DNA of 64,000 bases from an archaeon (GTDB lineage: Archaea; Nanobdellota; Nanobdellia; Woesearchaeales; GW2011-AR9), in the NCBI GenBank assembly GCA_023259115.1, contig JAHFQW010000001.1, forward strand, positions 81,937-145,936, read 5' to 3'. Below the pieces are notes generated by a model, which was given only the letters and a program-made list of their open reading frames with translations, was not told the DNA's origin and made no database searches. Positions 40,932 to 64,000 of the stretch are shown piece by piece (position 1 is the stretch's first letter; each line of letters starts with the position of its first letter). The position numbers were made by a program, and so were the translations under genes.

Positions 40932-41369
40932 TTGTTTATGGATAAAGCATTTTACAAGTTTTTGGATCATACGGCGGATGTGATGTTTGTGGCGAAAGCG
41001 GCAACGTTACCTGAATTGTTTGAGCAGTGTGCTCTGGCAACAGAAGAGACAATGGTGGATGTTGCGAAGGTGAAGCAGAAGGAGCAGACGAAAATTTTAA
41101 TTGAGGAGAAGACGGTGGAACAGCTGCTGTTTAGTTTTTTGGATGAGTTGGTGTTTTTTAAGGATTATAAACAGATGATGTTTAGTACATTTGAGATTCA
41201 GATTGGTGAGGTAAAAGAGGGCTATGAGTTGAAGTGTGTGGCGCATGGGGAGAAGCTGGATATGACAAGACATAATCCTAAAGTAGATGTGAAAGCAGTT
41301 ACTATGCATTTGTTTAAAGTGGAGCAGAGTAATGGGTTGTGGAAGGCGCAGGTGATTTTGGATATTTGA
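40932..41369 (+). CDS. Archease (RtcB tRNA-ligase cofactor family)
   Basis: FLDHTADVMF (archease EHTAD(I/V) signature). ~140 aa size. C-terminal conserved Lys/Asp block. Confidence 0.7.
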   Translation: MFMDKAFYKFLDHTADVMFVAKAATLPELFEQCALATEETMVDVAKVKQKEQTKILIEEKTVEQLLFSFLDELVFFKDYKQMMFSTFEIQIGEVKEGYELKCVAHGEKLDMTRHNPKVDVKAVTMHLFKVEQSNGLWKAQVILDI

Positions 41370-42268: not shown

Positions 42269-42814
42269 ATGGCAGATACACTTTTTTCATTGGCGGAAGG
42301 AATTAGACGTTGTACGGCGTGTCCTCTTTATAAGAATAGAACACTGGCAGTGCCAGGTGAAGGAGGAGTTGGTGCGCGCTTGATGTTGATTGGGGAAGCG
42401 CCGGGAGCGCAAGAAGATCGAGTGGGGTTGCCGTTTGTGGGTAGATCGGGGAAGTTTTTGGATTTGATGCTGCAGAAAATTGGTTTGTTGCGCAATGAGG
42501 TATTTGTGACGGGGGCGTGTAAGTGCAGACCGCTTGATAATAGGATGCCGATGCACAAAGAGCTTGTGATGTGTCGGGAGTTGTGGCTGAACAAGCAAAT
42601 TGAGCTTGTGAGTGCAAGAGTTGTGGTATTGCTTGGTGGAGCGGCGTTATGGTCGGTGCTGGGTGAGAAAGATGTGAAGAAGTGGCATGGACGGGTGGTT
42701 GTGCGAGATGCTCGGATGTATTTTGTGACGTATCATCCGGCAGCGGGGATGAGATTTCCAGCGATTAGAAAGATTATGGAGAGAGATTTTGAAAAGTTGA
42801 AGAAGATGGTGTGA
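42269..42814 (+). CDS. Uracil-DNA glycosylase, family 4 (Fe-S UDG)
   Basis: CTACPLY...VPGEG...MLIGEAPGAQED...PFVGRSGKFL are the family 4 UDG motifs. Confidence 0.8.
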   Translation: MADTLFSLAEGIRRCTACPLYKNRTLAVPGEGGVGARLMLIGEAPGAQEDRVGLPFVGRSGKFLDLMLQKIGLLRNEVFVTGACKCRPLDNRMPMHKELVMCRELWLNKQIELVSARVVVLLGGAALWSVLGEKDVKKWHGRVVVRDARMYFVTYHPAAGMRFPAIRKIMERDFEKLKKMV

Positions 42815-45123: not shown

Positions 45124-45221
45124 TAGCGGGGGGTGGACTTTCAGAGTTCTTGTGAACTTATTTGAACCACCGACCTATGGGTTATGAGCCCATCGGGCAC
45201 TCCGAGCTACCCTACCCCGCT
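45124..45221 (-). tRNA. Initiator tRNA-Met (anticodon CAT) with a 23-nt insertion immediately after the T-loop
   Basis: Hand-folded on the minus strand: AGCGGGG-TA-GGGT-AGCTCGGAGT-GCCC-G-ATGGG-CTCATAA-CCCAT-AGGTC-GGTGG-TTCAAAT-[AAGTTCACAAGAACTCTGAAAGT]-CCACC-CCCCGCT-A. A1:U72 and three G:C pairs at 29-31:39-41 are initiator hallmarks. Perfect acceptor, anticodon and T stems. Confidence 0.65.
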
Positions 45222-60773: not shown

Positions 60774-61361
60774 TTAGGTCTTTTTCTCAATTGCAACTAA
60801 CACTTGATTGATGAGTTGGAAGTCAGAGGCCATTTGTTTGAACATTTCGGGGTTTCGACCATTGTAGAGGTAGTTGGCGGGGTGGATGATGGGGATTACA
60901 GCGATTTCTTGGTTGTTGATGATTGCGAGGTGGATTTTGCCACGCAGTGTTGTGATGCCGGTTTTGTTGAGGATGCGTTGTGTTGCGAAGTTGCCAATGG
61001 TGATGATGACTTTTGGCTGCATGATGTGGATGAGTTGGTCTAATCGGTCACGGCAATTGTTTACTTCTTCTTTGTTAGGGTTACGGTTGTTTTCAGGATG
61101 ACAGAGAATAGTGTTGGTGATGAAGATGTCTTCACGATTAAGATTGATGGTTGCGAGGAGTTGTTGCAAAATTTGGCCTGAGGCGCCGCAGAAGGGGATG
61201 CCTTGCTTGTCTTCGGTGGCACCGGGCGCTTCGCCGATGAAGAGAATTTTAGAGAGGGGATTGCCGTTGCCAAAGACGACTTGAGAACGAGATTGGCATA
61301 AGGAGGGACATTTCTGGCAGGATTGATATTGTGTTTTGAGACTGTCGAGGGATGGTGGCAT
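60774..61361 (-). CDS. Uracil-DNA glycosylase, family 4 (second paralog)
   Basis: [11 protein letters not shown]...[35 protein letters not shown] are family 4 UDG motifs. Distinct sequence from the 42269 copy. Confidence 0.75.
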
Positions 61362-62823: not shown

Positions 62824-63063
62824 ATGACACTAGACGATTTTGTGGGTGCTGCACCTGATGAGGTTGGTTTACGTGCAGCTGATTTTGTGCCGTATTTTGG
62901 CAAGCGAGCGTATGAGACGCGTGTGGCACATTTACGGTTTTCTGAGAAGGCTAGGGTAATTGAGGATAGGATTGATGATTTGGGTTTTCTTCAAGGAACG
63001 TATATGACGGTTGTAGGACTTTGCGCATTTTATGTGTTATCAGTATATTTTCCTTTGAAGTGA
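62824..63063 (+). CDS. Hypothetical 79-aa protein in the position where rpl11 normally follows spt5
   Basis: ORF only. Not L11-like. C-terminal hydrophobic segment. Confidence 0.25.
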   Translation: MTLDDFVGAAPDEVGLRAADFVPYFGKRAYETRVAHLRFSEKARVIEDRIDDLGFLQGTYMTVVGLCAFYVLSVYFPLK

Positions 63064-63169
63064 ATATTCCTAAAAACTTAAATAGGGAACTTGTTTTTGT
63101 GTATTTTATACGGCTGTGATCCAACCTCGCTATCGTTCGGAGGATCACTGCGTATTCACTTGCGTTCAT

Positions 63170-63347
63170 ACGGCTGTGATCTAGTGGTATGATGTGAGCT
63201 TCCCACGCAACTTTTAAGAAAAGTTGCATCAAAACAGGGCCTACGGGTGGTGAGAACGAGCTTAACGGGGAGTTTACGGAAACAGCTTAATGTCCGGGTT
63301 CGATTATGCGTTACGTTTGTAATGCGACGAGAGTCCCGGCAGCCGTA
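63170..63347 (+). tRNA. Candidate multi-intron tRNA (tentative anticodon CCC, Gly) with ~82-nt intron at 37/38 and ~29-nt insertion after the T-loop
   Basis: Hand fold: ACGGCTG-TG-ATCT-AGTGGTA-TGAT-G-TGAGC-TTCCCA[intron]A-GCTTA-ATGT-CCGGG-TTCGATT-[29 nt]-CCCGG-CAGCCGT-A, followed by a T7 run. Acceptor, anticodon and T stems pair. D stem has one mismatch. A1:U72 is unusual for an elongator. Confidence 0.4.
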
Positions 63348-63668
63348 GTTTTTTTCTATTTAAGTTTCACTCCTCATATCTATCTCCTTCACAGCAGGGT
63401 TTGATGTGGTGGCAGTTATTATAGAGGGGTTTGATTAACCATCTAAAATTCCTCAAACCCCTCTAAGAAGTATACCAACGAACCTAATTTTTAATTAAAG
63501 TAGTTATGTTCGTTGTACAAGAAAACAAACAACGATTTGTTTTCTGTACAGAAAATAAGTTGTTTCTTATTTTCTTGTATATACAAAAGCACTAACTATT
63601 TTTGGAATTAATTAGTGCTTTTGGTATACTTTGAATAATTGATGAAAATAGGGTTATTCAAAGTCCTC

Positions 63669-63740
63669 TATAGATAATTCTGCTGATTAGATTATCAGAT
63701 ATAATACAAAAAATTAGCCTAATTAACAGAATTTACTATA
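63669..63740 (+). repeat. Composite intergenic repeat: TAGATAATTCTGC module fused to the module-2 repeat (...AATTAACAGAATTTACTATA)
   Basis: The 5' part matches 43436-43450. The 3' part matches 43595-43642 at ~90%. Confidence 0.5.
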
Positions 63741-63876
63741 CAGATGTATTTCTGTTTGATTGGTTCCATTTCGTGCTGGCATTGTTCGCAGAGGAGGGGC
63801 ATAGATAGTATATTTTCTTTGAGAATTAAAATGTTACGACAGCTTTTTATAGTATTGTGAGGCTCTAGGTGTTTAT

Positions 63877-64000
63877 GGGCGCGTGGCTCAACGGTACTTT
63901 GTTCATATAATCTGGATAAGGCGAAAAAGAGCGCTTCGTTCGCAACGAAGAGGTTTCGGGTTCAAATAGATACAATCAATAAGGTTGTTTGAGAAAGTCC
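63877..64000 (+). tRNA. Candidate tRNA (anticodon CGC, Ala-like) with 32-nt D-loop intron, truncated by window end (probably a further insertion after the T-loop)
   Basis: GGGCGCG-TG-GCTC-AACGGTA-[32 nt]-GAGC-G-CTTCG-TTCGCAA-CGAAG-AGGTT-TCGGG-TTCAAAT-... Perfect D, anticodon and 5' T-stem pairing once the 63897-63928 insertion is removed. 3' T-stem and acceptor strand not found before the window ends. Confidence 0.45.

Follow-up and report, generated by a model that had tools for sequence, protein, structure and literature searches.

In Thermoproteales and Thaumarchaeota, the D- and T-loops of tRNA genes can contain non-canonical BHB introns, with up to three introns in a single gene (PMC8450103). 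The Thermoproteales average is 0.84 introns per gene, and P. calidifontis carries 71 introns in 46 genes (PMC8450103). In ARMAN-2 (Ca. Micrarchaeum acidiphilum), pre-tRNA-Cys(GCA) has an intron at position 59/60, and pre-tRNA-Pro(GGG) has introns at 53/54 and 59/60 (Fujishima 2011, PMC3239211). The pre-tRNA-Glu(UUC) of Methanopyrus kandleri contains a D-loop intron at 20b/21 together with a canonical intron (Kaneta 2018, PMC5829648). EndAs of the alpha4 type with an L3 loop have been reported from DPANN lineages (PMC5829648). For 208 complete Nanobdellota genomes, a 2026 preprint gives a range of 26-54 detectable tRNAs in each and considers split tRNAs as an explanation.

The locus described here lies at the end of a 64,000-nucleotide stretch of archaeal DNA, referred to as the window. 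The last 124 bases of the window (63877-64000, + strand) hold a tRNA-Ala(CGC) gene made up of three exons and two short introns, and this alanine tRNA gene was confirmed to be real. Multi-intron genes, D- and T-loop sites, related introns across tRNA genes and a high intron load are all shared with Thermoproteales (Pyrobaculum, Thermofilum, Caldivirga). The host, however, is a mesophilic AT-rich DPANN archaeon and not a hyperthermophilic crenarchaeon, and its introns were found to concentrate at three loop sites, in a scan limited to genes with intact acceptor and T stems, as against many positions in Thermoproteales. Judging from the literature, the crenarchaeal (alpha-beta)2 EndA with its CSL loop would not be expected in this host (PMC5829648). 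The resemblance to ARMAN-2 lies in the DPANN host, a T-loop intron placed exactly at 59/60 and the use of strict or relaxed BHB motifs, but ARMAN-2 belongs to a different phylum-level lineage, its introns are cut by an epsilon2 EndA, and the partner intron in the present gene is located in the D-loop. The tRNA-Glu of M. kandleri is also a two-intron tRNA with a relaxed motif, and its D-loop intron occupies essentially the same site. Its second intron, in contrast, is at 37/38 instead of 59/60, and its D-loop intron is the sole non-canonical one of that genome, whereas interruption is the rule here. The split tRNAs of Nanoarchaeum equitans come from a related phylum and depend likewise on BHB-directed joining by EndA and a ligase. 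Their halves are separate genes joined in trans, while the parts of the present gene are contiguous and separated by cis introns of 31-32 nt. The kind of gene is thus already known; it is less appreciated how densely tRNA genes are interrupted in this clade and that the interruptions concentrate at three loop sites.

The tRNA-Ala(CGC) gene and its orthologues

Exon 1 (63877-63895, + strand, 19 nt) covers tRNA positions 1-20 and contains the acceptor 5' strand GGGCGCG (63877-63883), U8 and G9, the D-stem strand GCTC and the D-loop AACGGT. It is the same as in the orthologous locus L005. Exon 2 (63928-63966, + strand, 39 nt) covers positions 21-59 and starts with A21, the D-stem 3' strand GAGC, G26 and the anticodon arm CTTCG-TTCGCAA-CGAAG, in which the anticodon CGC is read at 63941-63943 (+ strand). 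The rest of exon 2, up to 63966, consists of the variable region AGGTT, the T-stem 5' strand TCGGG and the T-loop bases TTCAAA. Exon 3 starts at 63998-64000 (+ strand) with T60, C61 and C62 (TCC) and is cut by the end of the window. A partial tRNA with anticodon CGC had been described at this place, and the string given for it was found base for base at 63877-63966. When the insert is skipped, the invariant tRNA bases U8, A14, G18, G19, A21, U33, G53, T54, T55, C56 and A58 are all in place. G3 of the alanine identity pair G3:U70 is located at 63879. U70 and A73 are seen in L005 and L013 (CGCGTCC-A), and the window ends before them.

L005 (JACPNA010000053.1, Woesearchaeota) encodes an Spt5 83% identical to that of the window, and a complete tRNA-Ala(CGC) orthologue adjoins the Spt5 gene. 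Its layout is GGGCGCG TG GCTC AACGGTA [23 nt] GAGC G CTTCG TTCGCAA CGAAG AGGTT TCGGG TTCAAA [71 nt] T CCCGA CGCGTCC A, with G3:U70 and the discriminator A73 at its 3' end. Exons 1 and 2 of the window and L005 are identical at 57 of 58 bases, the sole mismatch being an ambiguous base at the T-loop junction; exon 2 matches at 38 of 39 bases if the T at 63967 is counted and at 39 of 39 with boundaries at 63928-63966. The introns occupy two identical sites and have diverged in sequence, with lengths of 32 nt in the window and 23 nt in L005 for the D-loop intron and of 31 and 71 nt for the T-loop intron. Beyond the T-loop, L005 supplies the 3' T-stem strand and the acceptor strand complementary to GGGCGCG (T CCCGA CGCGTCC A), which had been looked for in the preliminary description. 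From the 3' end of L005 and the complement of TCGGG and GGGCGCG with G3:U70, we infer that the last 11 nt of the gene (64001-64011) would read CGACGCGTCCA or a near variant (CGA CGCGTCC A).

L005 was the only close orthologue with matching exons. No genome, metagenome or viral contig in the collections contained the exact 39-nt string of exon 2, and in a metagenome scan the 20-nt exon 1 matched only tRNAs of bacteria and coding sequence. The contigs L001-L003, found by exact protein look-up to have an identical Spt5, stop before the tRNA.

ARAGORN called tRNA-Ala(cgc) for the exons of the window joined to the last 11 nt of L005, and the same call was obtained for L005 itself after in silico splicing (72 nt). 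The unspliced fragment of the window gave no ARAGORN call. Neither ARAGORN nor Rfam at the gathering threshold detected any tRNA across the 64 kb, and Rfam with a permissive E-value on 63000-64000 returned hairpin-like miRNA noise and no tRNA match. With a lowered threshold and introns allowed, ARAGORN made 16 calls, which were rejected as implausible because their "introns" were kb-sized. Look-ups of two small spurious ORFs overlapping the tRNA matched no records. That no tRNA model scores the unspliced sequence would fit a chance likeness to pieces of a tRNA in AT-rich intergenic DNA. This reading is effectively refuted and its probability is negligible: the 58 exon bases match the orthologue almost perfectly, every invariant tRNA base is present and ARAGORN accepts the spliced form.

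Further tRNA-Ala(CGC) genes of the clade differ in their introns. None was present in L059 and L078, only the D-loop intron in L020, only the T-loop intron in L016, L047 and L051, and both in the window, L005 and L013. The existence of orthologues with one intron or none indicates that the inserts are dispensable for the mature tRNA, and the introns of tRNA-Ala(CGC) appear to turn over fast in the clade. For L047 (7161-7300) and L051 (1123-1261), ARAGORN called a 71-nt intron-less tRNA-Ala(cgc). Proper T-stem and acceptor 3' strands (CCCGC CAAGTCC) were observed 67-68 nt further downstream, past a 59/60 intron, and the 3' ends called for these two genes are probably wrong.

Intron boundaries and the BHB register

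Both introns of tRNA-Ala(CGC) would fold in the same manner. A tRNA stem, either the D-stem or the T-stem, would form the outer helix. Four loop bases ahead of a two-base 5' bulge, which in this gene are the loop's first four, would pair in a central helix with four intron bases located 2 nt from the 3' end of the intron. The 5' bulge would consist of the next two loop bases and the first intron base, the 3' bulge of the last two intron bases and the final loop base, and a hairpin internal to the intron would provide the inner helix.

The D-loop intron was located to 63896-63927 (+ strand, 32 nt, position 20/21) and contains the inner hairpin CUUUGUUCA/UGGAUAAGG. An intron of 32 nt in the D-loop had been claimed for this gene, and it was confirmed, with the same site used in the complete orthologue L005. 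It had been placed at 63897-63928 (21/22). The two readings arise because both flanking bases are A, and they give the same product, but the BHB register favours 63896-63927. In this register the outer helix corresponds to the D-stem. The four loop bases that precede G19 pair with a stretch of four in the intron, 2 nt from its end, and the bulges are G19-U20 with the first base of the intron and its last two bases with A21. The inner helix is usually CUUUG/CAAAG. The register is common to 11 introns, the window included, from Ala, Gly and Arg genes, with a mean of 3.1 of 4 central pairs; no shifted register exceeded a mean of 1.9. The central helix of the window, AACG:CGAA, is the weakest of the 11, with 2 of 4 pairs where each of the 10 related introns has 3 or more, and its inner helix includes two G-U pairs. 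Because only two of the four central pairs are formed, the window D-loop intron would fit a relaxed BHB motif. MFE folding gave the D-stem, a 7x7 internal loop and an inner hairpin of 9 bp. The 4-bp central helices were not predicted by MFE folding in either the D- or the T-loop, as is expected for isolated short helices.

The termini of the window D-loop intron, ACTTTG...AAGGCGAAAA, resemble those of related D-loop introns. D-loop introns of three tRNA families have the common termini ACTTTG(C)...(G)CAAAGCGnAAA, which suggests shared descent or movement between genes. Common descent of introns or their movement between genes has reportedly also been proposed for Thermoproteales.

The T-loop intron was located to 63967-63997 (+ strand, 31 nt, position 59/60) and ends with AGAA-AG. 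AGAA pairs with T54-T55-C56, giving 3 of 4 central pairs when A57 is included, and the bulges are A58-A59|U on the 5' side and A-G|T60 on the 3' side. AGAA is also the central strand in L005, where the T-loop intron has the same end (AGAA-AA|T). AG|T forms the bulge and CC opens CCCGA, and the intron is therefore 63967-63997. The end of the window, ...TTTG AGAA AG T CC, is thus read as the intron end followed by T60-C61-C62, and the gene is short of 11 bases only. An insertion after the T-loop had been suggested, and a second insert is indeed real, with CCCGA absent before 64000. Its place is inside the T-loop, at 59/60, and it ends before the window does. MFE folding of the window T-loop gave the T-stem and a hairpin ACAAUC/GGUUGU, with a small internal loop between the hairpin and the central helix.

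The T-loop register was examined in 34 introns of the clade. The T-stem is the outer helix, bases 54-57 pair with the intron in the central helix, and the bulges consist of A58-N59 and the opening base of the intron on one side and of two intron bases and T60 on the other. The central strand consists of the four intron bases ahead of the final two, complementary to T54-T55-C56-R57. At least 3 of 4 central pairs were found in all 34 introns, with a mean of 3.74 compared to 1.61 at other intron positions. In a fixed-column alignment 93% of the central-helix cells were paired. Base 57 covaries with its intron partner, as A-U in 17 and as G-C in 12 introns. Pairing of the T-stem and the central helix fell from 96.8% to 56-65% when the partners were slid by one column; the T-stem is a selection criterion of the tRNA scan, and the central helix is not. 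The T-loop intron has the BHB geometry of two 3-nt bulges on opposite strands, a 4-bp helix between them and flanking helices on either side.

The T-loop break could also be viewed as the border of a split gene like those of Nanoarchaeum, with only the 5' piece in the window and the 3' piece encoded elsewhere and joined in trans. The host falls within Nanoarchaeota sensu GTDB, the window shows no 3' T-stem or acceptor strand, and split tRNAs in this phylum are suspected in the 2026 preprint. Such a gene is nevertheless highly unlikely here, in view of the contiguous tRNA-Ala(CGC) genes of L005 and L013 and of the window end itself, where T-CC starts the 3' T-stem at a distance of 31 nt from the break. 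The other 33 T-loop interruptions of the clade are moreover all cis introns, of 12-88 nt.

The 3' half of a tRNA gene is a frequent integration target. The 31 nt following TTCAAA are unrelated to tRNA and might for this reason be seen as the edge of a mobile element integrated with the tRNA gene as attachment site. Integration normally restores an intact tRNA 3' end, however, whereas here the loop is broken at 59/60 by an insert of just 31 nt, if TCC represents T60-C62. With short introns occupying 59/60 in many tRNA species and genomes, an integrated element is an extremely remote explanation. A short cis intron at 59/60 is the preferred reading, and the proposal of an archaeal multi-intron tRNA with inserts in the D-loop and near the T-loop is supported. 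It also agrees with the D- and T-loop introns documented in Thermoproteales, ARMAN-2 and Methanopyrus.

Interrupted tRNA genes and promoters in the window and the clade

Two more tRNA genes were found in the window. tRNA-Gly(CCC) (63170-63347, + strand), detected by our own scan, has introns of 78 nt at 37/38 (63206-63283) and 29 nt at 59/60 (63305-63333); the central helix of the 37/38 intron is TTCC:GGAA. tRNA-Met(CAT) (45124-45221, - strand) is initiator-like, starts with AGCGGGG and has a 23-nt T-loop intron at 59/60 (45160-45138); a TTTTTAAA box precedes the gene by 24 nt, and a T-run follows it. Both genes were missed by ARAGORN and Rfam in the unspliced form and were recognised by ARAGORN after in silico splicing, the former as tRNA-Gly(ccc). 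The window seemed to be free of tRNAs because none of its three tRNA genes is uninterrupted.

tRNA-Gly begins with 12 nt (ACGGCTGTGATC) that are present twice, 60 nt apart (63078-63181, + strand), and the spacing of the TATA box suits the first copy. An identical double layout was observed in a different species (L054, 7860-7962), with the first 26 nt of the spacer conserved. A third intron at the 5' end of tRNA-Gly was tested in 13 registers, and no convincing BHB was obtained. The double ACGGCTGTGATC could represent a leader or a third intron, or else have arisen by partial duplication. Between tRNA-Gly and tRNA-Ala, the spacer of 530 nt contains two hairpins (63515-63580 and 63575-63632, + strand) that are long, AT-rich and nearly perfect; they were seen solely as spurious miRNA-like Rfam matches. 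The two genes are separated by about 10 nt in L059 and L078, without the hairpin spacer.

A TATA-like box, TTTTTATA, is located at 63844-63851 (+ strand), 25 nt upstream of G1 of tRNA-Ala. In the 50 nt upstream of 53 tRNA genes (L004-L083 and the window), A+T peaked at -33 to -26 from the mature 5' end. The TATA box of the clade is TTTAAATA or TTTTTATA at -33 to -26, and positions -2/-1 are usually AT. The spacing of the box and the AT at -2/-1 imply that tRNA transcription would start at or beside base +1, giving leaderless tRNAs. The tRNA promoters of N. equitans are reportedly also at a fixed distance from base +1, and its tRNAs are said to be leaderless.

The promoter box at standard spacing bears on the question of whether the tRNA-Ala gene might be a decaying pseudogene, out of use and disrupted by two random insertions. 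Such decay would agree with the failure of ARAGORN and Rfam to recognise the gene and with the weak D-loop central helix. It is hard to reconcile with exons nearly identical to those of another species next to diverged inserts, with inserts at the exact BHB register of 11 D-loop and 34 T-loop introns, and with the similar interruption of the other two tRNA genes of the window. A pseudogene is consequently regarded as very unlikely.

For tRNA-Ala(CGC), the exon/intron anatomy, the conservation of exons versus the divergence of introns, the BHB register, the covariation of base 57 and the promoter box are all direct observations. The gene is, with high confidence from its sequence, a functional and separately transcribed tRNA-Ala(CGC) gene with two protein-spliced BHB introns, of 32 nt in the D-loop (20/21) and of 31 nt in the T-loop (59/60). 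Transcription would begin at or beside base +1 and EndA would cleave at the four bulge sites. RtcB with archease would then ligate exon 1 (1-20), exon 2 (21-59) and exon 3 (60-73) into a 72-nt tRNA with G3:U70 and A73. The actual cleavage and ligation, as well as the type of enzyme, we infer.

Archease is the cofactor of the RtcB tRNA-splicing ligase. A gene for archease was identified in the window at 40932-41369 (+ strand; Pfam PF01951, E 2.4e-42). Among the 60 window ORFs scanned, none encoded EndA or RtcB, and a tblastn search with an M. jannaschii EndA query gave no significant match, either to the window or across 83 related loci totalling about 0.7 Mb.

The tRNA genes of the clade were collected with our own scan, in which a 7-bp acceptor helix, a 5-bp T-stem and G-TTCRA were required and long inserts were allowed; only genes with intact acceptor and T stems are detected in this way. 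The scan gave 53 tRNA genes, and as the sample comprises the window and the related loci around Spt5 (L004-L083) and is dominated by tRNA-Gly(CCC), the frequencies are indicative and not genome-wide. A T-loop insert was found in 33 genes, extra length between positions 8 and 48 in 40, and both in 27. Only 7 of the 53 genes were uninterrupted; the other 46 had at least one insert, with at least 73 inserts in the 53 genes. Within the limits of a scan for intact acceptor and T stems, the introns are concentrated at 20/21, 37/38 and 59/60, three loop sites that are equivalent.

Two sequence families were noticed among the introns. A conserved T-loop intron family of about 75 nt (CAGATCT..AGATCTGGTAGGGGGATTCGCGGTCA..GCGTTCCCGCTCATAA..) occurs in tRNA-Arg and tRNA-Gly genes of different genomes (L083 722-867, L028 5287-5545, L036 7508-7771 and L073 6500-6680). 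The second family (CAGATGTCACGCCATCTGAAAGGCGGAGCGACTTCGC) includes both anticodon-loop and T-loop introns (L013, L026, L036 and L056). Both families could be mobile or structured intron RNAs.

The host and the meaning of its interrupted tRNA genes

Relatives of the window Spt5, 75-86% identical, were found in 80 genomes labelled Woesearchaeota, Nanoarchaeota or Nanoarchaeia. From these labels and the archaeal gene content, the host is judged to be a DPANN archaeon of Woesearchaeota/Nanoarchaeota, Woesearchaeales type. The genes upstream of tRNA-Ala are SecE, Spt5/NusG, a PIN protein and a UDG, and elsewhere the window contains an archaeal ribosomal-protein/RpoD cluster, TFS and primase. The G+C content of the window is about 39%.

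A strand asymmetry was also observed. The + strand of the window (1-64000) has 16729 G against 8180 C, with a GC skew of +0.34 in every 8-kb bin. Despite this strong G excess, 26 of 65 ORFs are on the - strand. At third codon positions, + strand genes have a GC skew of +0.79 and - strand genes one of -0.63 (coding strand); the intergenic skew is +0.23. The asymmetry points to what would be a very strong strand-specific mutational bias. A strong GC skew is common to L005 and L041 and is absent from most relatives. Two genes of the uracil-DNA glycosylase family are present in the window (42269-42814, + strand, and 60774-61361, - strand), and a connection with the apparent strand-specific C depletion of the genome is possible.

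A broader picture of the clade can be drawn tentatively and is more doubtful than the account of the single gene. Nearly every tRNA gene of the clade would be interrupted, often two to three times, at 20/21, 37/38 and 59/60, and the termini and sequence families common to different tRNA species would suggest movement of introns between genes. Promoters would direct transcription to start at or next to +1, and maturation would be carried out mainly by EndA and RtcB/archease, possibly with an EndA of the alpha4 type. The "missing" tRNAs of complete Nanobdellota genomes would then be undetected multi-intron genes and neither split nor lost. Multi-intron genes are in any case a simpler candidate than split tRNAs for the low Nanobdellota tRNA counts.

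If the broader picture is true, a possible alpha4-type EndA would be doing work so far credited only to (alpha-beta)2 and epsilon2 enzymes. The predicted leaderless tRNAs raise the question of whether the clade needs RNase P. The intron load of the sampled loci, with 46 of 53 genes interrupted, rivals the Thermoproteales record. Since ARAGORN and Rfam miss such genes, there are consequences for how the tRNA complement, genome completeness and codon capacity of DPANN genomes are judged. The clade also offers a mesophilic system for the study of gain, loss and movement of BHB introns and of EndA architecture in relation to relaxed motifs.
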